Source: Bispira polyomma (lineage: Eukaryota). Taken from it: a DNA stretch of 64,000 nt. Every line of letters starts with the position of its first letter. The stretch's first letter is position 1. Positions 1,049 to 62,400 of this stretch are shown piece by piece. Under the pieces are notes generated by a model. It did not search any database, had not been told where the DNA came from, and was given only the letters and a program-made list of their open reading frames with translations. A program made the translations under genes and the position numbers. The stretch is from NCBI GenBank assembly GCA_965649765.1, contig OZ287755.1, positions 2,170,001 to 2,234,000 on the forward strand, in the 5' to 3' direction.

Positions 1049-1559
1049 ATCTACATGTAAAGTTTAAACTCAAAGTTGTAAGCCTGAAAATGTAATACTG
1101 ATATTCAAATATATTGTGTTGTAACTCTGTTAGAATAATAGGCAAAATAACAGCAAGGAATTTTGCTAAATAGGGACAGATTATTCAGTCTATATCTATA
1201 TGTACTAAAAAGCTTTATAGAAAGAATATTTGCAAACCGATTACATCTTTGATTCCTCTAAAAAGCTTGATTAAAATAAATGGAACCATATCGAGATTAT
1301 TCCAGATATGTTGATTTGGTAATTGAGATCAATGAACCTAAATACAACATTGATCAATTCATATAATGATCGCTTGATAACGGACAATCCCTTTTCGAAA
1401 TTAAGCGCATTAGATGATTTTTATCAATTTTGCGCTTTATAAATGTTTTTATTATTATTATTATATAATTAGCAATGAGAGCGTTCTTAGGTTTTCAATA
1501 ATATTCGGTGAATTTGTCTATTAATTGTGACATCGGTTTGGTAAACAGTATGGAAAGAA

Positions 1560-4468: not shown

Positions 4469-4509
4469 CCCACCCCACATTTTTTTGTTGTCACACAAAT
4501 CGCTTTTTG

Positions 4510-16600: not shown

Positions 16601-19600
16601 AACAAGAATAGAAAATTTTTTGAAAGGGGAAAAAACATTATTCTTAGGTCTAACACAAACTACGCGGAGGAAGGAGAGAAAAAATACAAAATATTTTCTT
16701 AATTTAGACAAAAGGAATAAAAACATAAAATATACATTAAAGTTAATAAAAACAAATGGTCACGAGTCTGTAGAACCCAAAGGTATTTTACAAGAATAAA
16801 GACACTTTTCTAAAGACCTTTATGCAACAAGAATCCCTCAACATAGATGAAACATTTACAACTAATCCGTACAATAAAAACTTGTATGATATACAAAATA
16901 ATATTTGTGAAGATATATTACAAGTAGATGAAATCTTGAAGGCATTAAAAGAATAACCGAATGACAAAAGTCCAGGTAATGATGGTTTCACCACCAAATT
17001 ATTTTTAGGTCTTCTATAAAATATAAGCTACACAATAGCTTTACATTTTCCTTTGAGTCTAGTGGGTCTTATCAAAAGTGCGAAATAGTTACTCTTATAC
17101 CAAAAGATAAAAAACATGCGAGATATTTAAGTATCTTAAGACCAATAAGTGTTCTTAATATGGACTATACAGACATTAACCAAACTAATTTGTATTGATC
17201 AAGTAGGATGTATAAAAAAAAATACTTTTAGGGCAAAATATAAGAATCATAGACATTTTAAGATATTGTGCAGTCTCCAAAGGTAACCAAGTGTTGACCT
17301 CTAAAGTCAAGTTGTCTGACATAGAGGTTAAGAAGTGTTAAAGTTATATAGTATTTAATTTGATTATTGATGATGGATAGTTTGATGTTGTTTGAGATAT
17401 TTTATTTACATTTTCTAATTTACAACTGTACAGAAATTTTAAGATGATCTTAAGCTTTTAAAATGCCAAGCCAAAATTAGAAAGAAGGGGGAATAATGGC
17501 CACAAAAGTATCTGGTATAATAGATGCTGCATGTGAAGTAGATTCGAGATACGCCCAAACAGCATCAGACTTCCAACACCCATGTTTTTCAATGTTATGT
17601 AGTTTTACATTACTATTGAAGGCCAGAGAAGCCCCTGACATTCTGAAGCAGTGAAATGAGTGACCAGTATGAGGGATTTGACTCTTTGTCAGAATATCCT
17701 TTAAGATTAATCTTAACTGTGAATCAGTGGTGCATTTTCCTATATTTTTAGGGTTAGCCAATAGTGGGGCATGTAAAGGTAAAGGATATTTGTTAAATAA
17801 TGCCCTAACTGCTATTACTGGGCATAACCACGGATTATTTAAAGCAGGGAGTTGAATAATATTATGATTTGATCTGGTTTGAATAGTTTTTGACCACTTC
17901 AATACTAAATGTAATCTCGGAGATTCAAAAAGGATATCTGACCTTGTGATAAGACGTGTAGAGTCAAATCCGTCCAGTGATGAGGGAGTAAGGTTAGAGT
18001 TTCTCAAAAAAAAACAAAAAAACGCAAATAAAAAGGCAGTTCTGTATAGTTCCGGAAAGTGAGTAATTTGACAATGTCGTGATATTGTGTGTAGTTGATA
18101 AATGTCAAAGACACTCTTAGGAATTGGTTTAAAATTTGATGTGAGCATTATAGACCTCTGAAACAGGACAATTCTGTGATCATACAACTGTGTATCAAAC
18201 ACGGCAAATTTCTTTGCATAATATCTAATGGTTGCCAAATAATTGTTAATAACTTTGTAAGACAACCTTTTCTGATGTAGAAAAAAAACGTAGAAAAAGG
18301 CCAGCACTGTGCGAATTCCGAAAGTTTCCTTTACGTTATAGTATAGAATAAATGCCATGTATAGTCTCATCTGACTGTCATATTGTCTGTTCGTCCTAGG
18401 TCTGTGATTATCTTTTAGTCTCTCAATAGCTTTACATATCAGTGGCTGAACTTCTTCTGTTGTACCCACAATTACATATCAGTATTTAAATGAAACATGT
18501 TAAGGCATGTGTTCCATATAGAAAGTTTTAGGTATTATGGTTTTAATTTCTTCTTCATAATGCCCTAATATCTGCCATCTGGACAGTAAATCTGCCAAGA
18601 TATTCTTTTTCTCTGTATATGCTCAATTATAATCTCAATATTTAACTCTGCACGTATTAGCCAGAGGTTCCTCAGAAATGTACTCAGATATGTATCTCTA
18701 CTTTTAGCGGACTGCATCACAGCTACAACAGCAGCATTGTCAGATTTGATTTTAACTGTTTTATTCTGCCAACTCTCGCTCTATAGCCTAAATGCTATAA
18801 TTATGCTCAACATCTTGAAGTGTACAATTGACAAATTTTGTTTATTACAAAGAGGAATGGTTGCAGCAAATACATTGCCGTCTGATATGCCACCTATCCC
18901 CTGCAAACATGCATCAACATGTAGCAACTTTTCATACATTTTACTCTCTGTTTCCTCAAAAAAACCACCAAGAGGGTTGGATCTAGAGCCTTCTCGGTCG
19001 CAGCCCCTATGTTATGGAACAGTCTTCCAGTTAAACGTACACTGCTCAATGCACTTTCTGGTTTTTGGAAAAGGCTTAAAACCTATCTCTTCAGGCTAGC
19101 CTATCCGCCGTAGTCCTCTTCCTGGGCGCTGACGCATCCATCCTTACGACCTGGCCATGTTTTTTTTTCATTTTTCTATGGGCTGATTGATTCTGATGTT
19201 GTGCCTTAGAAGATGCCTAGAATCAATAAGGCGCATTAAAAATGTACAATACAATACAATTTTTTTTCATAACTCGTCATGCCATTTAATTGGAATAGAA
19301 ACTGAAAGAACCAGTTTAAGTCCTTCTTAAACTTTTTTGTTAATCGTATAGTGTTTGCCTCAAGTGATTTCTTAACAGGTGGAGCATTCAATTCATAAAA
19401 ATCTGAAATGGTTTTATACACCTGTGGATGTATGTAATTTTCCTAGCAATGATTGACACTTGGTTTTTGTCACTTTTTTCAGATGTCGAAAACTATTGCA
19501 TGTATCATATATTGCCTTTAGCTTTTCTTCATCAATACTTATCGTGCCTTGGTCGATGTTGATTGTTATGCCCATGCATGTCACCTTTTTATAAGAGTTT

Positions 19601-25600: not shown

Positions 25601-28600
25601 AAAACACTACTAAAACAGCAAGTAGTTGACATCAATGGAAAGGGCTTAATAATATCACTTGACTGCACCTCCAATACTGCAATTCTCTTCTTCTTTGGGT
25701 AAACTTCTCTTATATCAACCAGGGACTTGTATATCGAAGCTCTCGTTGTGCCAACGAACACACTAAGTCTTGGTTAAGGCTTTAAGGCTTAATTTTGTGT
25801 AAATAGAAGAATTAGTTTAATGTAGGTTAACTTTGTTCACAAAACCCCCCAAATGAAACGACAACTCAGACCCTGTCGTTAGGTATCAGTTAGAGCATAT
25901 GTTCACAAATAAATCAATGGAAATAATAGTAAAAACTTCTAAAAAACAAAGATATGGTAATTATGCAATCATGCCCAGAAAAATCAATATAACTTATATG
26001 TGTTGGTCTCTGTATTTGCCAATGCACTCGGACAGATTTGTCATGATATCTGTGATAGAGTTTGTTGGGAGATGTGGATGAGTACATTGTGTTTACGTAT
26101 ATTTAATAGTTCTTTATGTATGATGCACATAACTTCTTGTTATACTAGATGGATCAATAACTCATATAAGACATCTAAAAAGCTTTGTTTTTGTTAAAAA
26201 GGGCATAATGTCTACATTAATATCATAACCACATTATATGATGCCATACAACCACACCAGTTAGACCTTCGTTTAGGCTGAACTAACGAAAACCCAACCA
26301 ATACTTTCCATTTACCCACAGAGTTGTTTAGTTCTAGTCTCGTACTTTGGTCATTACTACTAAGTTAGTTGGCATTTTAACTAATGTTTCCATTTACAGG
26401 GCCCTGTTACAGTCCATTTAAAACTAATTGTTGTCCAGGCTGTACTGACATATTTTTCTATACATCGAACATTACATCCACTTCCTATTCACTGTCAAAT
26501 TTTGTTTAAATTCTATACAGCCATATGCAAAGCTGTTGTCTCTCAAAATTCCTACCTTGCAACTTGACCTTCTTTCACCAACATTAAGAGGGTAAAAATA
26601 CGTTCTGTTTTCTCTGTAAAACCAGGGTTGGTTCTAGAGCTTTCTCTGTTGCTGTCCATATGTTATGCAATACTTTCTTAGCTGGGCTTCCATTAATTCT
26701 GCGGTTTATGAAACAATCGCTTTGAACTAGTTAGTTCCTTCCATGTACACCCCACATTGTATTGTGTTGGATTGTATTGTACATTTTTAACGCACCTTAT
26801 CGATGCTAGGCATCTTCTAAGGCGCAACATCAGAATCAATCAGCCAATAGAAAAATTAAAAATATAGCCAGGTCGTAAGGATGGATGCATCAGCGACCAG
26901 GAAGAGGACTACGGCGGATAGGCAAGCCTGAAGAGATATTTTTTAACAGATATTTTTTAAGCTTTCTCCTGAAACCAGAAAGTGTTTCAAGCAGTCTAAG
27001 TTCCACTGGCAGCCTGTTCCATAACATAGGGGCCGCAACTGAGAAGGCTCTAGTTCCAACTCTCTTGGTGGGTTTTTTAGAGGAAACAGAGAGTCTTTTT
27101 CCCCTTGTAAGGCTACTGAAGGAGAGTTTAGTAGCGAGGTAGTGAAGCTGTTGAGAGACAACAATCTCGCAATTTGATTTTTTGGGTTCTAAGAGCAAGG
27201 TACGATTTGATCCAATCAAGGATAGTGCCATTAAGACCAAACCACTATTTTAGAGTGTCAAAGAGTAAGACATGGTCGATGGTATCAAAAGCTGCGGAGA
27301 GATCGAGAAGGGTGAGGGCTACAGTTTTATCACGATTCAAGGCAAGGTTAATGTCATCACTGATTGAAAGGAGGGCACTCTCCGTGGAGTGAAATTTTCT
27401 GTAGGCAGATTGGTGGCAGTTAGCTAGATTTTGTTTATTAAGGCGGTGATGAATTTTTTTAGCAACAGCTTTCTCAATGAATTTAGATACAAAGCTTAGG
27501 CTAGAGACTGGTCTATAGTTTTTAGCCCATTTTTGTCAAGGTCTGGTTTTTTCAGCAAACGGGCAACATAAGCAGTTTTGAAACAAAAGGGAAATATACC
27601 GTCTCTAAGCGAAAAATTTATGATGTTGGTGATAGGATTTATGAGAATGTCTATACATTCTGTGAGAACAGCGGCAGGGATAGGATCCAGTTCACAGGAT
27701 TTGATGGAGTTGGATTTTATGAGTTTGAGAACATCATTCTCCGAAAGTGGGTTAAAATATAGCAGATTTGAGACTTTATAGCCAGGGCATGGTGGAGAGA
27801 ACTGTAGCATTGTTGAAAAACCTTCTCAAATTTTAGTTATTTTTTCAATGAAAATTTTCCAAATTTTTTGCAAGAAATGTGAGGCAATGATTTTCAGGCA
27901 AAACTTTTTCAGCTGTGTGGTGGAGTATTTTATTTATAGAGCTCCATAACATTTTTGGGTAATTTGAATTCTCATTGATGATCGAATCATAGTGCTCTTT
28001 GTTGGCTCTGGTCATTAGTGCATTGAAGTGGTTTGTGGCGATTCTGTAGCGCTTCCTGTCAAGTGATGATTTAGTGCGCCGCCATTGCTGCTCAAGTTGA
28101 CCTTTTAGCTTTCTTGATGTCTGGGTTGGTCCATTCATGGGGGTCAGAAAGTGGGAGGGTTTTAGAAACCCAGGGAGCATGACTGTTAAGGATTGAAGAC
28201 AAAGTGTGGTTATATTGTTGACTGAGACTTGCCGCATTTTTACAAGGGTGTTTAATGAGGCGAGAAGCAAGTATGTCATCCCGAAATTTGGAAATATTAA
28301 TTTTCCTGATGTTGCGGAATTTTATTACCTTAGGTTTGTGTGACAGTGGTTTGGGCAGCACGAGATGTGCAAAAGTGGCAAGATGGTCAGATACCCCGTC
28401 AGTAAGCCATACATCCTGTATCAGCTTAGACTCTGGTCGAGCAATGATAAGGTCAAGAATGTGGTTATGGAGATGAGTCGGACAGGAAATAAACTGTTTG
28501 AATTTAAAGATATTCAAGAGGCTGTAAAAATCTTTAGTTATCGTCTTATTGATGTCGACTTTGATGTTGAAGTCACCAAGTACAATTGTTTTCAATGGGA

Positions 28601-31600
28601 GGAGGTTTATAGATTCAAGGAAACCAGAAAAGTCTTGATTGAAGGCAGACATAGAAGGGTTAGGTGGACGATAGCTGGGAAGAAACTAAAAATTATTGAG
28701 ATCCATTTGAAATTTTGCACGTAATACATTCGAAAGATGGAGGGTAATCAATATTGAGAATTTTGCTTGAAAGAGTACTTTTGACAAAGATAGCAACACC
28801 CCCCTCCCCCACGCTTGACAGGCCTAGGGGAGTGGTACAATCTATAACCTGATGGTGTGATTTCAGAAAGGAATGCAGAAGTATCCATTAAGCTGAGCCA
28901 GGTCTCAGACACACAGGCCACATCAAGGTCTTGTGTTTCAACAAGGGCAGTGACTGAAGGCACCTTATTGCGGATAGATCTGGCATTAAAGGCACCAATT
29001 TTTAGATTTGATTGGAAAGGCCCAGGGTTTATTTGAACATCGCCACAGAGAGCAGTAAGTAATGGAATCCATAGGTTTTTAACACGTGGGTTTGGACGGC
29101 GAAACATGTGTAGTTTAAAACAGAGAAAGACTGTATTTATGTTGTCCAATTGTGGTAAAAAAGAATGGCACATTGTGATTTGAGATGGATATTGTTGGTG
29201 AAAATTTTAACAAAAGTTTCAGGAAAGGATCCTAGTGATGACTAGAATGAAACATGGCAACAGTATTTTCAACATAACTGAAAAAGGAAAAAAGTATATA
29301 TTTAAGTATGCCAGCGATACTAGTAAATAACTACCAGGAATTAAACTAAAACTAGAAGGAAAGCTACCAAAAATTGACCGAAACTAGAAGGAAACTAGAA
29401 AGGAAAACTAAAAGAATTGACAAAAACTAGAAGGAAAACTAGAAAAATATTTACTATGTATACCAGCAACTAAAAAGGAAAACTAGAAAATTATTTACTA
29501 GATATATCAGCAATGCAATGATGAACGACCCACTCCTAACCCCCCAAAAAAACAACCCACCCCAAAACAACCCACCCCAAAATATGATGTACGACCCACT
29601 CCCACCCAGACAAAAACAACACAGTGCTAAATGTGCAGTATTAACAGTATTGCCCAAATATATATATTGTTCCACTCCCGCCAAATGGAATGGACGATAG
29701 TGCTAAATATGGGTCCCTAAATATGCAGTATTAACAGTATTGCCCATATATATATATATATTGTTCCACTCCCGCCAAATGGAATGGACGATAGTGCTAA
29801 ATATGGGTCCCTAAATATGCAGTATAAACAGTTTGTATTGTACCACTCCCCGCTAAACGGAATGGACGATGATAAGGTACTTTTACAATAAAGAGATTTA
29901 AAACATAAACGGAGATTTTAGACAATTTTAATATTGTTTTAATGATTTCTAAAAAGGATATAAAGAGATTTAAAACATAAACAGTGAATATAAGCAATTT
30001 TATAGTAAATCTCGTATTGATTTTCCAAAAAGCGGCTTCTCCCGGTGAACGCTAAACGCCAGAGTATAGAACATCCGTCCTTACAACATTAGCTTTGATT
30101 TTTTTAGACTTATTTTAAGGTTAATTAATGCTGCTGTTGTATGTACAAGATGATTTGTTTGTTTTTTTCGGTGTTTGACTTTCAAATCAACATATTCAAA
30201 ATGCATGATTTTATTTTCATGTAATTTCAAAGAAATTAATAATGAGCATCTCTGATGCATTATTTTACATAATACTATTACTTAAGAATGTACTTCTATT
30301 CACACAAAACAGGGGTGTAGTCCATGGAGGTCAAAGACATTACACTTCTACAATACTGGACTGGCGTTTGAAGCTATTATGACATTTGCTAGACCATCAC
30401 TTTCCAAGAAGTTGTTGGACAGAGTAAGGCCTATTAGTAACTTAACATTAACACATTTGTTTACAAATATATCATAATTACGGTATTAACTTTAATGGAT
30501 TTTAAAATGAAGCCAAAAATTTTCTTCACAATTTAACAATTTCCAAAATGTTTGGGTTTTTATAAATCTGGCCATTTGAAAAAATATTTCAAAGTGAAAA
30601 TATTAGTAGTGATCATATTTCCTCTGGTTATATGCAAACCACTCCATTAATTTCAAAACAGTGCACAAGTTTGTGATATTTTTACAAATTGACAAGGCTA
30701 CAGCTCTCCCATTATGATTTAGAAATAAGTAATGATAACACTTGAACCTAAAAATATTGTTATTTTAATTTTTTTATTTTAAACAGATCAGTTAGTTTAT
30801 ACAAAGCAATATATGTAGCTTTTTGTAGTTGTTATTATTGACAGATCATCACACATGACACACTAGAGACGGTGTACAAACATATCCCCATGGAGTATCT
30901 ACCTACAGAGTATCTCCCAGATGATTACACAGGACCTAATGCTGGGTCATTGACTGATTTAATACGTAAGTAATGTTGCATTGGTGACATTATGTATCAA
31001 TCTATGTCAGAGTTTTATCATACCAAATTTTCTTATTGTCAAACTGTAAGTGGAACAATCCCCAAAAGAATTAAAACAAATTTGGAAGACCAGACTCTTG
31101 TTGATAATTAAGATGCACTCTTATTTAAGTAAGTCAACTTAGTCACTTACTTCAGAAGAATGTTTATTGTTGACAAAGACTCAATTTCCCTTGTGCTAGA
31201 TAAATGCACAATAGAGGCTGGTGTAATGCCAGATTTTGCATCACCATAAAATGCTTTAGGGGTTGTAAAATATGGTAAATCTCTTGCCACATTGTGCACC
31301 TCTTGCCATATGTTACACCCCCTTGCCATATGTTACACCCCCTTGCCATATGTTACACCCTCTTGCCATATGTTACACCCCCTTGCCGTATTTTACACCC
31401 CTTGCCGTATTTTACGCCCCCTCTCATATTTTAGACCCCCTGCCATATTTTAAACCTCCTTGCCATATTTTACACCTCCCTCACAAGTATGGACACAGCA
31501 CATGTATTTCTAAAGATATTTCTGTGTTTCTATTAAACCATTATTTGATTATTTTAGGTTAAATACATTTATAATGTAAGTTTATGTGATTGTAATTCTC

Positions 31601-33662
31601 TTTTAAAATTTGTCCTAAATTGCTGTAAGATGACAAAAAGCTTTTCTTTTCACTTTTTCCTTTTTCACTTATTAATTAACTACACCTTGATATAATGGGG
31701 AGCCATGTATAACTTGATTTGTTTATATGGACTAGATCTGTGATCAACTAGCTCAACTGGATTTAGTGTTAGTAATTATAATTGAAGTTAAGTGGGAAGC
31801 CACAACTGTATGTCGATTTATTTCATTTCAACCGACGAGTGACTTAATCATAATTAATATATCATAACTACATCTGTTTCTATTCCTTTTTATATTTGTT
31901 TATATTAAATATAGCTTCGGTGTCATGTGGCTATGCAATTATGTAGATAGTTTAAATAGACAAGAGAAAGGTTACTGAATGCTAGATATTGTTTGTATCT
32001 TTTTAATTTATAAATACAATTTAATAAATTTTCATTACCTTTTCCTGTTTTATGTTTGTTTATACAAAATATATTTGATGTACCTTCTGGCTATGTAAAT
32101 TATGTAGACAGTAATAGAAGTGTGATTTAAGTATGTGATCTCCTTCTACAAATGTATTCTTACATATATTGGTTCAAAACAAAATATATACAAATCAATT
32201 GGTTTTGTCATTTTACCATGTGTTTTAAATCATGGACGTTTTGTTTCACACAATTATTTAATAGAGTCTAAATAAGGTATAAATAACATAGGTGAAGGCG
32301 AAACAATGCCCTAAACTTAATTGCAATTCCTCAAGAAAGAATAGATATCACTGATTTAATCATCAAAATTGAGTAAGGGTGCACTTTACGATGGAGTGTC
32401 AAATATAGCGGTCATATTTAGTCCCCCTTAATCCCCCATTGTTGGGAGTGCAAAATATGGCAGCCATATAATGCTGTAAAAGATCAAACAGAGGGTGTAA
32501 AATATGACAGCGTTGTAAGATAAGGCGTTACACCGGCACCAGACTAATACAGAGCACTTGGTGCTCAATTTCAGTGGTTTTAGTGGTGTCTCTAGTATTT
32601 AGACAATATTATCTGTGTGTAAAACTATTCAGATTCAAAATATTTAGTGATCAAGTTGCAATCTTTGCTATGGTCACAGGAGCATCCGCGGTAGCAATTA
32701 CCGGTTGCTTTCAAGTTACAACAGGAAAAGACAAAAAGTTCCACTTAACAAATTTATTTTACAATTAAAATAAGAATTACAGTCAACTAAGATACTCTTA
32801 ATAGTTCATATAATAGTACAGTAATACAATAATGAAACCAATCTGACCTGACCACAGTCCTGTCCATATAATTAACAGTTAAACAAGTTTCTCCACTGTA
32901 TCCAGCAATCTGTCTTAAGATCCATTTGGTGTCCAATAACACACAATGCCTGTATCCTGTTATCTATTCGGTGTCCACGAATATGTAGCAGTTCCCCTCT
33001 CCGGTACAACCTTAACTTTATCCAGTTTACTCTAATGAGTTCACCACAAAATGTATATAATATCCAGTTTATATCGACTTGACACAGAAATAAAGGGTTT
33101 CACAATATAGCAATCCGGATAGCATACTAACTCAATAAACTTTAGTCTATGGCCAGGCTTTCAACCCTTATATATACTGGAGATATAGAAGGCCCCGGAA
33201 AGAAATGTAAACAGGTCAACACAACTCCAATAAAAACACAACACAGAACCAGCTTCTAAAAGCTTAGGGATTTTCCCCAAATCTATAAATAGATCACTTT
33301 AGCCGAGTGTAAGAAACATCAGTACCAACTAGATCAGTTCTCCACTGACATACAACAATCTCCTTTTATGTACCATCATTGAACCAATGTTAGATTTAAT
33401 TCCTGATTTCTACCATAAATTAATGGCCTCGCCTAGATAATTTACAGTTGCTGAGATCGCTCTTAAATCTATCTAAGTTAAAAATCTTGCATTGACTTGT
33501 AGTGTTTATTTATTCTTTTCAGGTGATACCATTGAGGAGATTAAACAGGATGATTTTAGACAGAACATGCTATATAGGTCTAGCACATCATTTGGTATCA
33601 AGAACAGTAAACATCACCAGCCAGCGAAAACAGAACACTTCAGAAAACTCAATGTGGACTGA
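10626..33662 (+). CDS. CRAL-TRIO domain lipid/retinoid-binding protein (alpha-tocopherol transfer protein-like/clavesin-like), paralog 2, 314 aa
   Basis: Exons joined by hand with GT-AG introns and consistent phases: 10626-10782, 23751-23910, 24190-24251, 25340-25533, 30313-30423, 30845-30965, 33523-33662 (945 nt). Motifs: AKEELNENP..ALRDWI..QPHL, LQYLRGFKFS (CRAL-TRIO N), QVNGFVFLFDFTG, SPWRSKTLHFYN, ARPSLSKKLLDR, HIPMEYLPTEY, C-terminal FRKLNVD. Confidence 0.9.
10840..11400. repeat. Degenerate ~20-bp GT-rich tandem repeat (tgtatacattggtgtatgtag) just after the exon 1 donor
   Basis: Direct reading; includes a duplicated acaagaactagaac..gaacttt block at 10926 and 11097. Confidence 0.8.
11862..11985 (+). 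mobile_element. Short LINE RT fragment
   Basis: Translates GTLQNWFEHYLKRRNQKVVIGGQSSDSNTITCRVPQ, matching the W..SYL..R.Q.V...GVPQG segment of CR1-like RTs. Confidence 0.6.
14010..15050 (-). mobile_element. 3' fragment of an L1/Tx1-clade LINE (zf-RVT region)
   Basis: ORF 14218-14535: WLQYRIIHRILGTNKLL...CSFCKSWPETIVHLFAECP..W. Adjacent frameshifted pieces continue to FTKQWSKFSRL..* near 14011. Confidence 0.85.
17477..18469 (-). CDS. Tyrosine recombinase (YR) of the Ngaro-like element, 330-codon open frame
   Basis: Catalytic-type residues R (FLRNSNL), K (KWSKT), HxxR (HCFR), H/W (HGCWKSD) and Y (AYL). The annotated start is GTG, so the true start is uncertain. Confidence 0.8.
   Translation of the reverse strand: MGTTEEVQPLICKAIERLKDNHRPRTNRQYDSQMRLYMAFILYYNVKETFGIRTVLAFFYVFFLHQKRLSYKVINNYLATIRYYAKKFAVFDTQLYDHRIVLFQRSIMLTSNFKPIPKSVFDIYQLHTISRHCQITHFPELYRTAFLFAFFCFFLRNSNLTPSSLDGFDSTRLITRSDILFESPRLHLVLKWSKTIQTRSNHNIIQLPALNNPWLCPVIAVRALFNKYPLPLHAPLLANPKNIGKCTTDSQLRLILKDILTKSQIPHTGHSFHCFRMSGASLAFNSNVKLHNIEKHGCWKSDAVWAYLESTSHAASIIPDTFVAIIPPSF
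18943..19260 (+). mobile_element. 5'-truncated 3' tail of the L2/CR1-like LINE family, inserted in the Ngaro RNase H region
   Basis: KRVGSRAFSVAAPMLWNSLP..LKTYLFRLAYPP*, then a 3'UTR and a tacaa-repeat tail. Closely matches the reverse complement of 26757-27095. Confidence 0.9.
26605..26690 (+). mobile_element. Short fragment of the same L2-like tail
   Basis: ttttctctgtaaaaccagggttggttctagagctttctctgttgctgtccatatgttatgcaata resembles 18950-19030. Confidence 0.55.
26757..30084 (-). mobile_element. L2/CR1-clade LINE with 2A-like/APE/RT ORF, internally deleted and frameshifted
   Basis: GDVQINPGP, FNARSIRNK, VSETW, GGGV, LGDFN, LDLII, SDH, SCELDPIP, HSTESALL, LDLSAAFDTIDH. The RT core is deleted at ~27140. 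3' tail of tacaa repeats at 26757-26785. The 5' boundary (~30084) is approximate. Confidence 0.88.
29623..29872. repeat. Three ~80-95-bp tandem copies in the LINE 5' region
   Basis: Unit gtgctaaatatgggtccctaaatatgcagtattaacagtattgccc..ttccactcccgccaaatggaatggacgata. Confidence 0.85.
31218..32536. mobile_element. Non-autonomous TIR DNA transposon with subterminal 21-bp repeats
   Basis: ctggtgtaatgcc (31218) versus ggcgttacaccgg (ends 32536). Tandem ttgccatatgttacacccc repeats at 31283-31480 are mirrored by gggtgtaaaatatg motifs at 32390-32520. Confidence 0.7.
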
Positions 33663-42300: not shown

Positions 42301-45300
42301 TAATAATTGGCAAGGTGAAATATGTGATTCATTATTCTGTCATTATGCCCTTTGTACCCGAGCAGGATTGATTTGGTTGTCAAACAATGATCGATTGATC
42401 AATAAGTCTGTTTTTCTGACCTTAAAGTATTAAGTGGAAAAGTGTTTAGCCAATGAGCTGGGTTAATGCAAATCAATTCCAAGGGACAAATAGAACTACA
42501 TTTTATGTAAATGGAGCCAATAGTGGTTAATCATTCCATTGAACTTCTACAGTGGTATTCATAAAAGGGTTAACAAAAGACTTGGATCCAGTATACTTTG
42601 TGCTAGATTTAGGACAGTGTCCAGACCAAGCCCTTTTTGTGAACACAGTCCCTAGGACAGTATTCACTAACAGACAAAGCCAAGTCTTTGGCTTAACTCT
42701 AGCACAAAAGTATACTCGACATATGCCTAAGATGTGGCTAAGTCTGTTGGTGATTATGGGCCCTGTATATTAGAGACATATAATTGTTGTTCAAGCTGAA
42801 ATTTGTACATATATAGTATATGTTTTTGGTAGGACTTTTAGATTTGTTTCCCGTTTTCTTTGTGTTTTTAGTATGGTGATACCCCTACCCAAGAGAACTC
42901 CCAGAGGTGAAACGGTGGTGCTAGAGAGACCTCGTAAGTCATGTGGGGCTTTATAGTGTAAACAGGGAGGTTTATAGTGTAAACAGGGAGCTATGTAGGG
43001 TAAACAGGGAGGTGTATGGTGTAAACAGGCAGGTGTATAGTGTAAACATGGAGGTGTATAGTGTAAACATGGAGGTTGATTGTGTAAACAGGGAGGTGTA
43101 TTGTGTAAACAGGGAGGTTTATATTGTAAACATGGAGCTTTATAGTGTAAACAGGAAGGTGTATAGTGTAAACTGGCAGGTTAAAAGTTTAACAAGTTTT
43201 AGATTAAAAAAAATTAAAGACTTAATTTTTATCAATCAGCTTATAAATGTTCACATAATGTTTTAAGTAGCATGTGGTTTCCTAATTGTGAAGCAATGTC
43301 AAACTACTGTAATTCATGAAATGAATGTGATCCCAGCTACATATGAATCAGCCTCAATCTGTCTATCCTTCTGTCAGGCTGTTTGGACGGTAAGAAGTTT
43401 TCCTGGAGCACCTTCTTCCAGAGCTTTATTGTGCTGTTTCAGTACCTCACTGACAATGAGATGAGCCAGGTTAATGGCTTCATCTTCCTCATGGACTTCT
43501 CGGGGGTAGGAGCCAAGCTGTTAACTAGGATGATGAACAAGGAAATGGCCGACTTTGAGTCCAAATGGGCGGTTAGTATGGTAGACTATTACTCCCCCCC
43601 ATTAGTAATAGTTCCCATTTTTCGATGATATATCATATAAGTGCTGTGTCAAATTTGTTAACTTTGCTTATGTTAACCACTATGTCGCTGGCTGCTACAA
43701 AAGCCATGAAATGGCCACACAAAGCTCAGTCTAGGTCTGTCCTTCATTCCGGCCATACCACAATGTTTGTCCAGGTGTATATCTTGGTGTCTACTGTAGC
43801 AACTCTATTATCTGAACTTATGTTGTCTAAATATTCAATTTTAGTGAACTTTGTTTCACATTCACAAATTTCCTTTTTCCTATTGTTTTATACAGAAAAC
43901 GTCTCCGAACAAAATGATTTAAGATGTACTTTATACGTCAACATTGACTTAATGAGTACTCAATATGTGCTCCATTTGTACTCCATATCTGTTGCACTTA
44001 TCTTACATATGTGCTTCATATGTTATACGTATGTACTCAATATGTACTTGGAGAAGTCAATATGTACTTAGTGTGTACTTAGTGTGTACTTAATGTGTAC
44101 GGTGGTACAATGTTATTTTGACGTATTAAACAAACTAATTAAAAATAGTTACTCATATTCATACTTAAATAGTTAAGATGTATTTATGATGCAACAAAAA
44201 ACACAACAAGTACAATTAAATCAGCTTTCTCAACATATTTATACAAACATTTTACCATTAGTAATTCTGTTATTAATAAATAAGCGGCAATATAGCTATA
44301 TATGTCAAAATAATATGTGCATTGAAATAACATCATACTGCCATACTTTAGGTGCACTCAACATGTACTTAATGCCTCTTTTTCTTGTATTGTCCAGTTT
44401 CCCATTGTGTATTTTTGTTATACTTCAGAAAAGTTCCCCCGGCCGCTTCAAGGGTTTCCACATATATAACAGTGGGGTGTTGTTTGAGATGATGATCGCC
44501 TTCGCTAAACCTATACTACCAAAGAAGTGGATAGAAAGGGTGAGCTCGACACAATTATCTGTGAACACTTCTTTAGGTTAGAGTTTGGGTTAGAGTTTGG
44601 GTTAGAGTTTAGGTTAGAGTTTGGGTTAGAGTTTGGGTTAGAGTTTGGGTTAGAGTTTAGGTTAGAGTTTGGGTTAGAGTTTGGGTTAGAGTTAAGGTGT
44701 GGGTGTATGAGTGTATTGAATCCATGTATCTGTATGGCCATCTGTATGGATGTATCTGTATGGCTCTCTGTATGGCTCTCTATGGCTGTATGTGTCACTC
44801 GCTCTATCTACGGATAAAGACCCATGACAACTTGGAGACTGTGTACAAACACATCCCTGTGGACTGTATGTATTGATGTATTACTATATGTATGTCTGTG
44901 TATGGTTGTGTGTATGGTTGTATGTATGGATGTATATGTCACATGTCACTCTCTCTATCTACAGATGAAAACCCATGACAACTTGGAGACTGTGTACAAA
45001 CACATCCCTATGGACTGCCTTCCTGAGGAGTATCTTCCTGATGACTATACAGGACCTAACGTGGGCTCTACACAGCAAATCCTGGGTCGGTAGCACTAAA
45101 CTGTGTCTTCAAGATGTTGAGGATATCATATCCAGCCATTGGCTAGTCAAGGCTTTACTAATTACAGATGGGTTTTGTTGATTTGATAGCCTTCTATATT
45201 AAATATTTACCATCTTCATTACCCAAATATGTTTGGTATCATTTGCATGCCAAAAAACATATTAACATAATTTTTTAGATTAAAATACAGCTCCAATTTT

Positions 45301-54600: not shown

Positions 54601-55060
54601 CTAACCCTTTTACCCCCGTGTTACGTTTGTTGTTTACCTTTAACCCAGTAACACATCTAAAAACCAAAAAGCAGATTCCTTGTTTTTGTCCGAAATTGTA
54701 AAGGTTCAACTGATGTGAACATACCGTATGCGCCCAAAGTGTGGCCCAATTTTTGGTATATTAACTGTTGGAATTCACTGGAAGTATCTGAAGACAGAGG
54801 AGTATGACACCATTTTTATCCACCACCACACCCCCACCCCCCACAAGGTTATTTAGCCCTGACCACTAGGGATATATAGCACCAGATGACACCTCCATTT
54901 TAAGTATTGACATCCTAAACACTATGAGAAAGCCGCTGTGGCCTAATCTAATCTAATCAAACTTTCATAATAAGTTGTTAAAATCATTGCAATGCAAATT
55001 CATGATCCTAGAGGTCACATGGGCAAGAAAGATTTCTATAGAGGGTACCCCGGGATGAAG

Positions 55061-55880
55061 TGTTACAAATGGGGACATTGTGGTGTGTTGAAGAAAAACC
55101 GGTCTAGTTAGTACTAATGGTTTTACACTCTGCTGGAGTGATCTATTTATAGATTTGGGGAAACCCCTAAGCTTCTAGAAACCGGTTCTATTTTATTTCT
55201 GAAGGTTATTAAAGTTGTATTCATATGTATATCTCATCTCTGGAATGTCCTAGCGATTGCTTACACATTCTAGCAACCTTCTCTAGCAGTGGTATATATA
55301 AGGGTTGACAGCCTGGCCACAGAAGAGATTTAATTGAGCTGAGGTGCTATATGAATGCTATAGGAACTACTATACTGTTTGTTATATACATTTTGTGGTG
55401 AACTCATTGGAGTGAACTAGATAAAAGTTGTGGATCTACCAGAGATTGGATTTACTGCATATTGGATATTGTTTGCATCCTGGACTGGATAGCTTAGTTG
55501 TGCAGATTCTCTGGATATATACATTTTGTGTGCGTGGACGCTGAACAGATAACAGGATACAGGCATTGTGTGGACATTAAGTGGATCTCAAGACAGATTG
55601 CTGGATACAGTGGACAAACTGGTTTAATTGTTATTTAAGTGGACAGGACTGTGGTCAGGTCAGATTGATTTCATTATTATATTATTGTGTGAGCTATTAA
55701 GGGTATCTCAGTTGACTGTAATTCTGTAATTCTGTAATTTTGTAATTTTATAATTCTGTAATTCTGTAGTTGTTATTTTATTTGTTAAATAAATTTGTTA
55801 AGTGAAACTTTTTGTCTTTTCCTGTTACAACCTCAAAGCAACCGGTAATTGCTACCGCGCTGGCTCCCGTCACCGTAACA
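55061..55880 (+). repeat. 5' LTR
   Basis: TGTTACA...GTAACA termini; TATA-like tatatataag at ~55293; ctgtaatt octamer tandem at 55716-55768; AATAAA at 55788-55793. Confidence 0.97.
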
Positions 55881-55887
55881 GGAAAAT

Positions 55888-55905
55888 TGGGGGCTCGTCC
55901 GGGAT
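55888..55905 (+). promoter_or_regulatory. Primer-binding site complementary to the tRNA-Pro 3' end
   Basis: TGGGGGCTCGTCCGGGAT, the 18-nt PBS-Pro sequence known from murine leukaemia virus; 7 nt downstream of the LTR end. Confidence 0.93.
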
Positions 55906-55990
55906 CTAACCATTTGATTTAACTATTTTATAGCTTTTTGAAAAATCATTTATTTTGTTGAAAAATATATTACAGTCAACAGTGCTCAAA

Positions 55991-58900
55991 ATGGCTAGTG
56001 CTAAAGAGTTTGTACAGTCACCATCTATTGAGGTTCTAGAAACTTTTAAAAAAGATATGTTAATGCAGATAACACAGGAATTACAGTTAGATGTGAAAAA
56101 GTCAACACGTAAACATGAACTTAAAAGGCTTATTGTTGAACAGTTAGTTGATGAAGACCTTTTGCATGATAGTTGTTTAGAAGTGTATGAACCTCTGCCA
56201 ATGGAACCTTCTGGGCAATTTGAGATCAGGCGATTAGAAATTGAAAGAGAGCTAAAACTTAAAGAGCTTGAAGCTCAGCAACAACAGAGAAAAGAAGAGC
56301 TTGAGCTTGAGGCTCAAAGGAGAAAAGAAGAGCTTGAGGCTCAAAGGCGAAAAGAAGAGCTTGAGCTTGAGGCTCAAAGGCGAAAAGAAGAGCTCGAAGC
56401 TCAAAAATTTGAAAAGGAGCTTGAACTTAAACATGAAAGGAAAATGAAGGCTTTGGAACTCAATGCTCGCCGAATTGCCCATGAAGAGTCCATGGCAACC
56501 AAATTTGATTTGGGTAAAAATATGCGACTGGTACCACCTTTCAGCGAGTCCGAAGTTGATAAATATTTTCAACACTTTGAACGAGTGGCTCAAAATTTGA
56601 AATGGCCCACAAACCAATGGCCTTTATTGCTGCAAAGTGTTTTCAAAGGCAAAGCCCAAGAGGCATATACAGCTTTGCCAATTTCTGAATGTAGAGATTA
56701 TGACTGTGTGAAAAATGCTATCTTGAAAGCATATGAGTTGGTACCAGAAGCATATCGTCAAAAATTCAGAAATTATCGTAAGCAAGAAAATCAAACTTAT
56801 GTTGAATTTGCCCATGAAAAAGAAGTGTACTTTGACAGATGGTGTAATTCTAGAGAAGTTGGTACAGACTTTGAAAAGCTTAGGCAAGTCATTTTAATTG
56901 AGGAGTTCAAAAGGGGTGTTCGTGATGACATTAGAACCTATCTGGATGAACAGAAAGTAGAAAATTTGCAAAAAGCAGCAGCTTATGCTGATGAGTATGC
57001 GCTGACTCACAAGTCCACTTTTAACAAGAGTAAATCCTCTGGTCCCACAAAGAAGTTTTATCCTGAAATAGGAAAGAAATTCAAAAATGTAGCTCCAGAA
57101 AAGAGTTCCGATAAGTTTCAAACAACAAATCAGACAATGAGTAAGGATAGGAAACCTAGGTCCTTTGCTCCTGTGTGCCATTACTGTAAAAAACCTGGGC
57201 ATGTTATGTCTGACTGTTGGCTCCTTAAGAAAAGGAGAGAAAAGGAGGCAACACCTAATGCTTTTATTTCTAGCAAATCTAATTGGCGTTCAAATCCCAA
57301 TAGAACAGAATCTAGTATTGGTTTAGACAAGTCTGAGATTAGGGATGAGTTCAAACCTTTTGTGTCTGAGGGTTTTGTGTCCTTAGAAAGTAGTTCCAGT
57401 CAAGTTCCCATTAGGATACTAAGAGACACTGGTGCTACTCAGTCACTACTTTTAGAAGGTGTATTGCCATTGAGTGTAAGCACTTCTACTGGTGAGAGTA
57501 TTATTGCTCAAGGTATTGAAGGAGGTTGTGTAAACATTCCCTTACATAAGGTCAACTTAGTATCAGACTTAGTTACTGGTTCTGTTGTGGTGGGTACCAG
57601 GCCCACTTTACCCATTAAAGGGGTGTCTTTGCTGTTGGGAAATGATTTGGCAGGTGGCAAGGTGGTTGCTGATCCTAAGGTTACTTCTAAGCCGATCACT
57701 TTGGTTAGCACTGAGAAATTAGAAGAGGTTATTCCTGGTATTTTTCCCTCCTGTGCTGTGACTCGAGCTATGGCTAAAAAAGCCCAAGAAGAACCAAAAG
57801 ATTGTAAACAATCTGCAGATGTCTTAGTTGATTTATCAGATACATTCTTAAACAACTGTGACCATGATGTGCAAAATCATAGTGAGATTGACCCTAAAGG
57901 TAGGAAAGATTCTGGGAAACAAGACCAATTTGATGATCCAGATGTATCACTCTCAAAATCAAAATTGATTGTAGAGCAGGAAAATGACCCTGAATTAGCC
58001 GCTCTATTCAAATTGGTGTTACCACCAGTAGAGCTAGATAAGGTCCCAGTAGGCTATTATATCAGAAATGGTGTGCTTATGCGAAAGTGGAGGCCGCCAA
58101 GTGTCCCTACCTCTGAGAACTGGTCAATACTTCATCAGATTGTATTACCAAAAGTGTACCAAAATGATGTATTGAGGTTAGCTCATGAGTCTCCAATGGG
58201 TGGCCATTTAGGCATCAACAAAACCTATGGCAAAATATCCAAGCATTTCTACTGGCCTCAAACCCGGCGCTGTGTGGCAGAATTTTGTAAAACTTGTCAC
58301 ATTTGTCAAGTTGTGGGAAAACCAAACCAAAAAATTCCTGTAGCTCCTCTAAAACCCATTCCAGCATTTGAGGAACCATTCAGCAAAGTGATAATGGATT
58401 GTGTAGGCCCCTTACCAAAGACTAAATCCAGAAACCAATATCTCCTAACCATTATGTGTGCCTCAACCAGATTCCCTGAAGCCATACCTTTGACCAACAT
58501 AACAGCCCCAAAAATCTCAAAAGCTTTAGTCAATTTCTTTACTTTAGTTGGCTTACCAAAGGAGATGCAGTCAGATCAAGGGTCAAATTTCATGTCAGGA
58601 TTATTTCAGCAAGTTGTGTTTCAGCTAGGTGCCAAACAGATCAAATCTAGTGCTTATCACCCAGAATCACAAGGTGCCCTTGAAAGGTTCCATTCCACTT
58701 TAAAAAATATGATTAGGACATATTGCTTAGACAATGAGAAAGATTGGGATGAAGGCATCAACTTATTATTGTTTGCAGTTAGGGAATCAGTGCAAGAGTC
58801 TTTAGGCTTTAGTCCCTTTGAGTTGGTGTTTGGTCATTCAGTCCGTGGTCCTCTCAAATTGTTGAAAGAAAATTGGTTATCCGAGAACTCTGAGAGCCTA

Positions 58901-60754
58901 AACCTGTTAGATTATGTTTCAAAGTTTAGGAGTAGGCTGAAAAAGGCTTGTGAGCTAGCGCAACAAAATCTGAAACATTCTCAGTCAAAAATGAAAAGGC
59001 TTTATGATAGAAAGTCACAAAACCGTGTTTTTAAACCGGGAGACAAGGTTTTAGTGCTATTACCTGTCCAGGGGAACATGTTACAGGCCAGATATCATGG
59101 GCCTTACAAAGTGTTAAAAAGAGTAGGTGATCTGGATTATGTCATTGAAACCCCGGACAGAAGGAAGTCAACCCAACTGTGTCATGTAAATATGGTAAAA
59201 CCATACTTTGAAAGGGGTGTGACAAAGCCTGTCATGGCTACTGACTGTAATGTGGAAAATGACAACAATCAGGAGCATGAAGCATGGGATGACACTCATG
59301 ATGTTGAAGTTAAATGTAAAATCAGGTTGAGTAATTCAGAAATTCTTGCTGATTTGGAAACCAAACTGAATCATGTACCTCCAGATAAGAGAATCTCACT
59401 TAGTGAGTTACTCTTGAAGTATAAGTCAGTATTTCCTGATGCCCCTAACAGGACTAATGTACTCATGCATGATGTTGATGTTGGCAATGCCATTCCGGTC
59501 AAACAGCACCCATATCGGGTAAACCCGATTAAACTTGGAAAATTAAGACAAGAAGTGCAATACATGTTGGACAAAGATATAATTGAACCAAGTCAAAGTA
59601 GTTGGGCATCTCCTTGTGTTTTGGTCCCGAAGCCTGATGGTTCTATCAGATATTGCACAGACTATAGAAAGGTTAATGTTTTGAGTAAAACCGATTCATT
59701 TCCTATCCCAAGAATGGAAGATTGTATTGATCGGATTGGTAAAGCCAAATATATCACAAAATGTGACTTATTGAAAGGTTACTGGTGTGTACCTCTTACT
59801 GAACGGGCAAAAGAAATATCAGCATTTGTAACTCCCGATGGTCTGTATCAGTACAAGGTAATGCCATTTGGCATGAAAAATTCCCAAGCTACATTTCAGA
59901 GACTAATGAATATATGTTTAAGAAACTTAGAAGGGGTTGAAGTGTATGTGGATGATATTGTCATCTTTAGTGATACTTGGGAAGAACATTTGAAAAGACT
60001 TGAACAAGTTCTGTTTCAGCTCAAACAAGCCAACCTTACTGTGAATCTATCAAAAAGTGACTTTGTAAAAGCAAAGGTTGTTTACTTAGGGCATGTAGTT
60101 GGTCATGGAGTTGTGACACCAATTAAAGCAAAAGTTGAAAGTATCATTGACTATCCCATTCCTAGAAATAAGAAAAGTTTAATGAGGTTTCTGGGAATGT
60201 CAGGTTATTATAGAAAATTTTGTAAAAATTTCTCAGATGTCACTGCTCCACTGACTGAGCTCTTAAAAAAAAACGTAAAATATCACTGGTCTGAAGCATG
60301 TCAAAAAGCATTTGACAAAGTAAAGAGTGTTCTCTGTTCGGAGCCTGTATTAGCTGCTCCAGACTTCAGTAGACCATTTCGGTTAGCTGTGGATGCCAGT
60401 GATGTTGGAGCAGGTGCAGTTTTACTGCAGACTGATGATGAAGATATTGAACATCCCATTTGTTATTTTTCAAAAAAATTTAACGTACATCAAAAAAATT
60501 ACTCTACAATCGAAAAGGAATGTTTAGCCCTCATTTTAGCCATTAAACACTTTGATATATATATATCTTCATCATCAAAACCAACTATCGTGTACACAGA
60601 TCACAACCCTTTAGTATTCTTGCACAAAATGAAAAACAAAAACAGACGTCTATTGAATTGGAGTTTGGTTTTGCAAGAATACAGTTTACAAATAGAGCAT
60701 GTTAAAGGAAAGGATAACATTTGTGCTGATGCTCTATCAAGAAGTTGTAGTTAA
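55991..60754 (+). CDS. Gag-Pol polyprotein, 1587 aa from the first ATG (capsid/SCAN-like, CCHC, protease, integrase, RT, RNase H)
   Basis: CHYCKKPGHVMSDC knuckle; LRDTGA protease; HESPMGGH..CHIC, MDCVG, SDQG, LERFH and GPY integrase motifs; then DYRKVN, MPFG, YVDD (RT); VDAS, EKECLA, TDH, ADALSR (RNase H). No stops or frameshifts. Confidence 0.96.
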   Translation: MASAKEFVQSPSIEVLETFKKDMLMQITQELQLDVKKSTRKHELKRLIVEQLVDEDLLHDSCLEVYEPLPMEPSGQFEIRRLEIERELKLKELEAQQQQRKEELELEAQRRKEELEAQRRKEELELEAQRRKEELEAQKFEKELELKHERKMKALELNARRIAHEESMATKFDLGKNMRLVPPFSESEVDKYFQHFERVAQNLKWPTNQWPLLLQSVFKGKAQEAYTALPISECRDYDCVKNAILKAYELVPEAYRQKFRNYRKQENQTYVEFAHEKEVYFDRWCNSREVGTDFEKLRQVILIEEFKRGVRDDIRTYLDEQKVENLQKAAAYADEYALTHKSTFNKSKSSGPTKKFYPEIGKKFKNVAPEKSSDKFQTTNQTMSKDRKPRSFAPVCHYCKKPGHVMSDCWLLKKRREKEATPNAFISSKSNWRSNPNRTESSIGLDKSEIRDEFKPFVSEGFVSLESSSSQVPIRILRDTGATQSLLLEGVLPLSVSTSTGESIIAQGIEGGCVNIPLHKVNLVSDLVTGSVVVGTRPTLPIKGVSLLLGNDLAGGKVVADPKVTSKPITLVSTEKLEEVIPGIFPSCAVTRAMAKKAQEEPKDCKQSADVLVDLSDTFLNNCDHDVQNHSEIDPKGRKDSGKQDQFDDPDVSLSKSKLIVEQENDPELAALFKLVLPPVELDKVPVGYYIRNGVLMRKWRPPSVPTSENWSILHQIVLPKVYQNDVLRLAHESPMGGHLGINKTYGKISKHFYWPQTRRCVAEFCKTCHICQVVGKPNQKIPVAPLKPIPAFEEPFSKVIMDCVGPLPKTKSRNQYLLTIMCASTRFPEAIPLTNITAPKISKALVNFFTLVGLPKEMQSDQGSNFMSGLFQQVVFQLGAKQIKSSAYHPESQGALERFHSTLKNMIRTYCLDNEKDWDEGINLLLFAVRESVQESLGFSPFELVFGHSVRGPLKLLKENWLSENSESLNLLDYVSKFRSRLKKACELAQQNLKHSQSKMKRLYDRKSQNRVFKPGDKVLVLLPVQGNMLQARYHGPYKVLKRVGDLDYVIETPDRRKSTQLCHVNMVKPYFERGVTKPVMATDCNVENDNNQEHEAWDDTHDVEVKCKIRLSNSEILADLETKLNHVPPDKRISLSELLLKYKSVFPDAPNRTNVLMHDVDVGNAIPVKQHPYRVNPIKLGKLRQEVQYMLDKDIIEPSQSSWASPCVLVPKPDGSIRYCTDYRKVNVLSKTDSFPIPRMEDCIDRIGKAKYITKCDLLKGYWCVPLTERAKEISAFVTPDGLYQYKVMPFGMKNSQATFQRLMNICLRNLEGVEVYVDDIVIFSDTWEEHLKRLEQVLFQLKQANLTVNLSKSDFVKAKVVYLGHVVGHGVVTPIKAKVESIIDYPIPRNKKSLMRFLGMSGYYRKFCKNFSDVTAPLTELLKKNVKYHWSEACQKAFDKVKSVLCSEPVLAAPDFSRPFRLAVDASDVGAGAVLLQTDDEDIEHPICYFSKKFNVHQKNYSTIEKECLALILAIKHFDIYISSSSKPTIVYTDHNPLVFLHKMKNKNRRLLNWSLVLQEYSLQIEHVKGKDNICADALSRSCS

Positions 60755-60936
60755 AGGTTATTTTGTATGTTAGTAACTGAAAAGTTGTAACTTGTAAAAC
60801 TTAGATGTTTACTTATGGATAATACTTGTGTAACTTAAAATATAATGTTTCATGGATCAATATGTACACTGTATGTTCACTTATGTTTTGTGTAATATGA
60901 AATTTTGTAACCCCTTGGCTTCCAAAATTTTTCTTT

Positions 60937-60947
60937 AAGGGGGGAGG
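60937..60947 (+). promoter_or_regulatory. Polypurine tract
   Basis: AAGGGGGGAGG directly abutting the TG of the 3' LTR. Confidence 0.9.
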
Positions 60948-61767
60948 TGTTACAAATGGGGACATTGTGGTGTGTTGAAGAAAAACCGGTCTAGTTAGTA
61001 CTAATGGTTTTACACTCTGCTGGAGTGATCTATTTATAGATTTGGGGAAACCCCTAAGCTTCTAGAAACCGGTTCTATTTTATTTCTGAAGGTTATTAAA
61101 GTTGTATTCATATGTATATCTCATCTCTGGAATGTCCTAGCGATTGCTTACACATTCTAGCAACCTTCTCTAGCAGTGGTATATATAAGGGTTGACAGCC
61201 TGGCCACAGAAGAGATTTAATTGAGCTGAGGTGCTATATGAATGCTATAGGAACTACTATACTGTTTGTTATATACATTTTGTGGTGAACTCATTGGAGT
61301 GAACTAGATAAAAGTTGTGGATCTACCAGAGATTGGATTTACTGCATATTGGATATTGTTTGCATCCTGGACTGGATAGCTTAGTTGTGCAGATTCTCTG
61401 GATATATACATTTTGTGTGCGTGGACGCTGAACAGATAACAGGATACAGGCATTGTGTGGACATTAAGCGGATCTCAAGACAGATTGCTGGATACAGTGG
61501 ACAAACTGGTTTAATTGTTATTTAAGTGGACAGGACTGTGGTCAGGTCAGATTGATTTCATTATTATATTATTGTGTGAGCTATTAAGGGTATCTCAGTT
61601 GACTGTAATTCTGTAATTCTGTAATTTTGTAATTTTATAATTCTGTAATTCTGTAGTTGTTATTTTATTTGTTAAATAAATTTGTTAAGTGAAACTTTTT
61701 GTCTTTTCCTGTTACAACCTCAAAGCAACCGGTAATTGCTACCGCGCTGGCTCCCGTCACCGTAACA
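60948..61767 (+). repeat. 3' LTR
   Basis: Identical to the 5' LTR by eye except C61469 versus T55582. Confidence 0.97.
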
Positions 61768-61904
61768 TGAAGTAAGGTGTGTTAAGGTTGCTTCTGAAAC
61801 TAGAGAGGGTTGGTGCGGCAACACAGCAAATCATAGGATCCAATCTGTTTACTGGTTCTGGTCTTGGAGACTGACATTTGGGGTTTCCTGGTATTAAACC
61901 TGCT

Positions 61905-62400
61905 GAAAGACAACAATGAGGCAAGACATGCAGTACTTGATTGGTGGCCAAAAGACAGCAATAGAGCAAGATATACAGTACTTGATTGGTGGCCAAAAGA
62001 CAGCAATGAGGCAAGATATACAGTACTTGATTGGTGACCAAAAGACAGCAATAAGGCAAGATATGCGGTACTTGATTGATGACCAAAAGACAGCAATGAG
62101 GCAAGATATGCAGTACTTGATTGGTGGCCATAAAACAGCAATCAGGCAAGATATACGATACTTGATTGGTGGCCAAAAGACAGCAATGAGGCAAGATATA
62201 CAGTACTTGATTGGTGACCAAAAGACAGCAATAAGGCAAGATATGCGGTACTTGATTGATGACCAAAAGACAGCAATGAGGCAAGATATGCAGTACTTGA
62301 TTGGTGGCCATAAAACAGCAATCAGGCAAGATATACGATACTTGATTGGTGGCCAACAGACAGCAATGAGGCAAGATATAAGGTATTTGATAGGTGGCTA
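61905..62400. repeat. 45-bp minisatellite x11 with an exact 180-bp higher-order duplication
   Basis: Unit gacagcaatgaggcaagatatacagtacttgattggtggccaaaa; 61981-62160 equals 62161-62340. Confidence 0.95.

Follow-up and report, generated by a model that had tools for sequence, protein, structure and literature searches.

An intact Gmr1-like Ty3/Gypsy retrotransposon of Bispira polyomma and the two target-site duplication lengths found in its family

Gmr1-like elements are Ty3/Gypsy long terminal repeat (LTR) retrotransposons defined by a gene order in which the integrase (IN) is encoded upstream of the reverse transcriptase (RT) (PMC6238403, PMC8220671). A SCAN-like capsid has served as a further criterion (bioRxiv 2025.03.03.638093), the SCAN domain has been linked to the Gmr1 capsid (bioRxiv 2025.03.03.638093, PMC4592553), and every Gmr family described in PMC11117352 has a single fused open reading frame (ORF). 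Here we describe such an element in a 64,000-nucleotide stretch of Bispira polyomma contig OZ287755.1 (the window; positions refer to it unless a contig such as C1 or C2 is named). The element is a Gmr1-like Ty3/Gypsy retrotransposon, intact and very recently inserted, and one of about 1,400 copies that arose in a burst of two waves. The copies make up under 1% of the genome, and their target-site duplications are 4 and 5 bp long about equally often.

The element shares its integrase-first order and SCAN-like capsid with cod Gmr1, the Ciona elements, pufferfish Gmr1-4, annelid LGF3 and crustacean GyRex4, and it shares with Gmr1-like elements a fused ORF of about 1500-1630 amino acids (aa), a length of 6-6.7 kb and peaks of recent activity (PMC11117352, PMC8220671, PMC3587641, bioRxiv 2025.03.03.638093). 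In yeast Ty3, by contrast, RT-RNase H (chain 580-1009) precedes the integrase (1089-1445). The window family differs from the described Gmr1-like elements in its even split between two duplication lengths; we found no statement of the duplication length of Gmr1-like elements in the Gmr1 literature examined.

A Pfam scan and conserved motifs place the domains of the ORF in the order SCAN-capsid, protease (PR), IN, RT and RNase H (RH). The features of a Ty3/Gypsy element are all present (TG...CA LTRs, primer site, polypurine tract, short duplication, Gypsy-type RT and RNase H, GPY tail), as are those of a Gmr1-like element, namely the PR-IN-RT-RH order, a SCAN-like capsid domain upstream of PR and IN, and a fused Gag-Pol ORF. 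A preliminary description, made from the sequence alone, had listed the LTRs, the target-site duplication, the polypurine tract, the 1587-aa ORF and its domain order, and had read the element as Gypsy-type and Gmr1-like with a SCAN-like capsid. All of these are found in the sequence. The RT matches RVT_1 and is Gypsy-type; that description had counted a grouping with Copia against itself. Copia-type RVT_2 is absent among the 10 Pfam families matched at E up to 0.1, and the best solved-structure match is Ty3 both for RT-RNase H (E 4e-127) and for the integrase (E 4e-36). Its remark that Gmr1-like capsids are the proposed source of SCAN agrees with the two sources cited above for that link.

In a protein search, 2939 of 7965 scored candidates matched at E 1e-50. 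Those with names come from pearl oyster, scallop, sea cucumbers, a sawfish and a sponge and are 47-55% identical. The integrase precedes the RT in 112 of the 120 homologues listed; the other eight are short of a domain, and none has the reversed order. In an RT-RNase H tree of 32 rows, the element falls in a 22-row clade (100/100) whose other members, from fish, echinoderms, molluscs and a sponge, are likewise integrase-first and bear SCAN. This tree held no labelled Gmr1 sequence and only one canonical-order family, and thus does not address a single origin of the order.

The size of the family was estimated from exact patterns counted across the genome. There are 1307 junctions between LTR and primer site, and 695 young-type and 697 older-type junctions between polypurine tract and LTR, while reversed-pattern controls gave none. 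The best 40 of 2333 LTR candidates and the best 30 of 2893 internal candidates are 98-100% identical. For comparison, no family exceeds 23 copies in a survey of nine draft mollusc genomes (PMC6238403); those assemblies are fragmented, so part of the gap is technical.

Copies were also sampled by position, taking 60 of the first 100 loci listed on C1 (entries 1-20 and 31-70), of which 43 could be called at both outer ends and 17 could not. Young copies (n=25) are 96-99% identical to the window LTR, with a median LTR-LTR difference of 0.25% and identical LTRs in five; their ORF reaches at least 1500 aa in 10 and is broken in 15. Older copies (n=18) are 85-94% identical to the window LTR, with a median LTR-LTR difference of 1.7% and no intact ORF. 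The catalytic D, D and E residues are retained in 59/61, 61/61 and 60/60 copies, respectively. The best matches had hinted at a subtelomeric preference; listed copies lie along the whole of C1 and are denser in its first 9 Mb. The very recent age proposed in the preliminary description is borne out, with one difference in 820 LTR positions (95% range 0.003-0.68%; LTR position 522), and many near-identical copies exist in the same genome. The window copy is not special within its family, given the five sampled young copies with identical LTRs. It belongs to a minor branch; five LTRs at three loci have its LTR-tip variant, and its LTR resembles a mosaic of two lineages. A copy at C11:47.25 Mb was considered as its parent and rejected, since U3 is identical and R/U5 is not, which indicates a mosaic rather than clean descent. 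A more distantly related LTR also occurs in the window, inside another repeat that has a second copy at about 480-3900.

Target-site duplications could be sought at 78 insertions with both ends, where 36 are 4 bp long, 38 are 5 bp long and four are uncallable, giving a 4-bp share of 0.37-0.61. The 35 nearest insertions comprise 19 of 5 bp, 15 of 4 bp and one with no duplication, and the 43 chosen by position comprise 19 of 5 bp, 21 of 4 bp and three uncallable. Mismatched flank pairs gave a 4- or 5-bp match by chance in only 31 of 6006 cases, and both lengths are present among solo LTRs (4 and 6). The even split is solid in the assembly examined.

The split follows neither the LTR lineages nor the integrase variants of the family. 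The LTR termini, the primer spacer and the polypurine tract are alike in the two classes, and the LTR tree contains sister copies, joined with strong support, whose duplications are of different length. Among 46 young copies, none of 11 variable integrase columns tracks the length (best p 0.31); with older copies included, the best of 31 columns reaches p 0.049, uncorrected. Nor are the two classes of different LTR age (p 0.50). Loci of other integrase-first families of the genome served as a control. Of 23 such loci, three were uncallable and the other 20 all have 5-bp duplications, a difference from the window family at p 1.6e-5 (Fisher); one of these calls lies in a TA repeat, and alternative 4-bp readings off the LTR ends at two loci were set aside. 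Twenty loci of a canonical-order Gypsy family supplied no control, their LTR pairs being uncallable or beyond the stretches taken. The two classes also share a target preference. A T lies three bases outside the joint (position -3) in 42/72 half-sites of the 4-bp class and 47/76 of the 5-bp class (p 3e-4 and 2e-8), and a central pyrimidine-purine (YR) step is mildly enriched in both (15/36 and 27/38; p about 0.02 each).

The spacer between the LTR and the primer site is 7 bases in the window family versus 1-5 in the control families, and we can only speculate that this longer spacer at the U5 end causes the mixed lengths. The genome contains at least four further integrase-first Gypsy families (L215, L219, L222, L226, L242, L262), which differ in primer site and have spacers of 1-5 bases; in several, the LTRs are near-identical.

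Some retroviruses give a minor second duplication length. The integrases of foamy virus, MLV, HIV-1 and Rev-A resemble that of the window family in favoring a T on the outer side of the joint and a central step that is flexible, but each of the 12 viruses listed there has a single duplication length (PMC4422553). Several lengths within one family are known for the IS481EU DNA transposons, which use a related DDE enzyme; the source describes duplication length as conservative and such variety as unusual (PMC10045372). However, those are DNA transposons with lengths near 4, 15 and 25 bp, whereas the window family is an LTR element with lengths of 4 and 5 bp. No description of mixed 4- and 5-bp duplications in one LTR family was found in the literature searched, although the founding Gmr1 papers and the Repbase reports lay outside that search and one may be in print.

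In Ty3/Gypsy elements, the 5' LTR drives one RNA and the protease cuts one polyprotein into capsid, integrase and RT-RNase H. By analogy with established Ty3/Gypsy elements, minus-strand synthesis would be primed by tRNA-Pro and plus-strand synthesis by the polypurine tract. Copy-and-paste retrotransposition is the likely means by which the family spread. We consider it probable that the window element is a recent copy in a Gmr1-like family of about 1,400 copies, spread by ordinary retrotransposition, whose single integrase joins the two ends either 4 or 5 bases apart. Each integrase active site may read its own flank, through the T three bases outside the joint, and the spacing between the two sites may flex with bending of the target, so that one enzyme would yield both duplication lengths. 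Whether this also represents a type of behavior undescribed for LTR elements, one integrase making 4- and 5-bp staggers about equally in vivo, is a more doubtful matter, and we suggest it tentatively.

Several points weigh against this account. The enrichments of the central YR step are weak and their p values uncorrected. The older wave leans to 4 bp (11/16) and the young wave to 5 bp (14/24; p 0.12), as would fit two enzymes or one that drifts. The search for integrase variants presumes that each copy was inserted by its own protein; action in trans would hide a link, and the numbers are small. The control families are just 31-39% identical in protein, so the mixture of lengths may belong to the SCAN-capsid clade as a whole. 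The RT tree held no labelled Gmr1 sequence, and present-day mobility is something that we infer.

On this last point, the burst may already be over, with the window copy intact solely through youth and the family now silenced or fixed. We regard this as a serious possibility, although we lean away from it. The broken ORF in most of the sampled young copies would fit such an end, as would contigs of one public sample that cross the insertion junction unbroken. The identical LTR pairs and the near-complete retention of the catalytic residues argue the other way. An ended burst bears on present activity alone and is compatible with one integrase having two spacings. The contigs in question come from two public runs of one sample and span the left junction between host and LTR with no differences; the assembly itself may have been built from these runs, in which case their support is not independent. 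The public runs listed with the element are of DNA or carry no label, with no RNA run among them. No joint skipping the element occurs among the matches listed, and the runs covering the flanks equal the assembly letter for letter.

The main competing account of the split itself is that two integrases of fixed spacing, one of 4 bp and one of 5 bp, come from sister subfamilies that share LTR ends, and that both insert copies in trans. Two waves do coexist whose LTR tips, primer site and tract are the same, the older one has the lean to 4 bp given above, and copies look mosaic, which implies that RNAs of different copies meet. Yet none of the 18 older copies has a full ORF, while young copies with 0-2 LTR differences have 4-bp duplications, and the lack of a difference in LTR age and the common preference for T at -3 also speak against it. 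We think this explanation unlikely, and retain a single integrase as the better account.

Recent horizontal transfer of the family between marine animals, an idea also raised in the preliminary description, was looked for in sequence from other organisms, and no sign of it was seen. A run labelled as another organism (B) does contain part of the ORF (3407 bases, 95.5% identical), and host groups are mixed in the RT tree, where a fish protein shares the element's 8-row clade (99/99). However, the run of B and a second organism (D) also share other repeats from the flanks, as close relatives with inherited copies would, and D has many copies of the element at 80-99% identity. The named homologues of other phyla are far more divergent, and the host genome itself contains the older wave and a still older LTR, so the lineage has been through several rounds in this host. 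Three runs of one study, labelled as organism A, match the flanks exactly; organism C gave 17 short matching pieces; and a marine metagenome contains the element at about 98-99% identity without its flanks. A metagenome scan found two distant loci among 52 candidates, and further sequence clusters have 87-90% identity. Transfer appears quite improbable. Least credible is an origin of the 4-bp class in errors of assembly or end calling, for although one assembly was examined, the LTR tips are exact in 21/21 4-bp cases, 8/15 4-bp sites have neither A before nor T after the duplication (counted by eye) and so cannot be explained by base loss at the LTR edge, and other families in the same assembly gave only 5-bp calls.

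Some members of the family form head-to-tail arrays with shared LTRs. Arrays at C2 (two units), C11 (three) and C5 (four) each lie inside one duplication, and those at C4 and C7 have an end missing. The three pairs of units compared show 0-2 differences over about 5,060 bases. Four arrays were counted among 95 loci (100 junctions listed), in agreement with a check of 29 coordinates. Such arrays would arise after insertion through unequal exchange between LTRs. Arrays of the form LTR-internal-LTR-internal-LTR have been attributed to LTR-LTR recombination (bioRxiv 158386), and ours show no difference of substance from those, except that whole arrays are resolved here, three of them with one duplication round the array.

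A much longer array belongs to a different integrase-first Gypsy family. It consists of 14 head-to-tail units at a spacing of exactly 6317 bases, about 89 kb in all (C2:38,237,138-38,326,440; L179-L194, L206-L212). Differences between its units amount to 0-2 bases per 7-10 kb, and each unit has an open frame of 1645 aa with an in-frame 510-base duplication of the zinc-finger part of the integrase; a dispersed copy of the same family (1475 aa) is without this duplication. The ends of the array show no target duplication. It could be a nascent retrotransposon satellite or else an artefact of assembly.

The features of the element and its surroundings are collected in Table 1. Within the 5' LTR, TATATAA at LTR position 235 and AATAAA at 728 are consensus matches only. 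The Pfam parts of the integrase are Integrase_H2C2 (aa 720-775), rve (795-891) and the C-terminal SH3-like Integrase_p58_C (1029-1072), with GPY at 1037. The primer site, which the preliminary description called perfect, is complementary to tRNA-Pro, but lies 7 bases past the LTR and is not adjacent to it. The corresponding 22-base tRNA-Pro pattern occurs at 42 places in the host genome, and all three that were checked are tRNA-Pro genes. Clusters of the tRNA-Pro 3' pattern occur at C11:40.84-40.88 Mb (16 places) and C2:69.98 Mb (7 places). No env ORF follows pol, where 193 bases separate the stop codon from the 3' LTR, and the element, being without an envelope gene, would spread inside the cell.

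Table 1. Features of the Gmr1-like element and of its surroundings in the window
Feature	Position	Strand	Details
Left target-site duplication	55056..55060	+	TGAAG, 5 bp; directly outside 5' LTR
5' LTR	55061..55880	+	820 bp, TG...CA
Primer-binding site	55888..55905	+	TGGGGGCTCGTCCGGGAT; complementary to tRNA-Pro 3' end
Gag-Pol ORF	55991..60754	+	Single ORF, 1587 aa, no stop or frameshift
Capsid C-terminal domain	56744..57013	+	Pfam SCAN (PF02023), aa 252-341, E 2.8e-11, above cut-off
CCHC zinc knuckle	57176..57217	+	aa 396-409; Pfam zf-CCHC (395-409) below cut-off
Aspartic-protease motif	57419..57436	+	LRDTGA, aa 477-482; motif alone, no Pfam match
Integrase	58148..59206	+	aa 720-1072; HHCC, D803/D862/E898, GPY/SH3-like tail
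Reverse transcriptase core	59624..60097	+	Pfam RVT_1, aa 1212-1369; YVDD at aa 1319
RNase H	60287..60682	+	Pfam RT_RNaseH, aa 1433-1564
Polypurine tract	60937..60947	+	Abuts 3' LTR
3' LTR	60948..61767	+	820 bp, TG...CA; one difference from 5' LTR
Right target-site duplication	61768..61772	+	TGAAG; directly outside 3' LTR
CRAL-TRIO exons	43380-43550, 44414-44550	+	Weak Pfam matches
333-aa open frame	17477-18478	minus	No Pfam match
Non-LTR retrotransposon pieces	26890-29206	minus	Broken pieces (all three rows: endonuclease, RT, zf-RVT)
Non-LTR retrotransposon pieces	4356-6495	plus
Non-LTR retrotransposon pieces	14218-14604	minus
Older related LTR	32666-33363	minus	66-73% identity
45-base tandem repeat	61906-62398		11 copies, open in both directions

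The surroundings of the insertion include two exons of a CRAL-TRIO lipid-binding gene 11 kb upstream; further exons of this gene, the last one included, were not found. The 333-aa open frame resembles what we take to be a tyrosine recombinase from its motifs. Broken pieces of non-LTR retrotransposons are also present, as are several minisatellites in addition to the 45-base tandem repeat, which lies 140 bases to the right of the insertion.

The host genome comprises 1.035 Gb in 75 contigs. Matches to erythrocruorin linkers were found for three of seven candidates and point to an annelid, though such linkers are not strictly confined to annelids. The mollusc marker haemocyanin gave no match, but neither did the controls. 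A Hox cluster on C13 includes one gene with a KLTGP motif after the homeodomain, and its neighbours are presumably Post2 and Lox4. KLTGP is the Lox5 mark of lophotrochozoans and flatworms (PMC5431905). Judged from these sequences, the host is a lophotrochozoan and likely an annelid.

The preliminary description had supposed that a protostome host would make the host range of interest. The host is a protostome, specifically a lophotrochozoan, but Gmr1-like elements of protostomes are already in print, and the present element adds one data point to a known range. The first protostome cases were reported from crustaceans in 2013 (PMC3587641), followed by a deep-sea annelid in 2021 (PMC8220671) and Gmr1/Osvaldo elements of a flatworm in 2025 (PMC12801592). 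A polychaete survey lists Gmr1 among the clades of several phyla without recovering it itself (PMC8556966), and a mollusc survey does not list Gmr1 among its known clades (PMC6238403). The named mollusc proteins found here have the same integrase-first order.

Each integrase is taken to have one fixed duplication length, and elements are classified by it. An even split between 4 and 5 bp within one family would allow a direct look at whether the target sequence, the DNA ends or the geometry of the intasome sets the spacing, a question so far approached by comparing different viruses. If a single integrase with two staggers is indeed responsible, some 1,400 young natural insertions, together with the solo LTRs, would be a ready data set for this purpose. 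The burst of about 1,400 copies, with arrays at a few percent of loci, also shows that young LTR families in long-read lophotrochozoan assemblies can be far larger than draft genomes had indicated.

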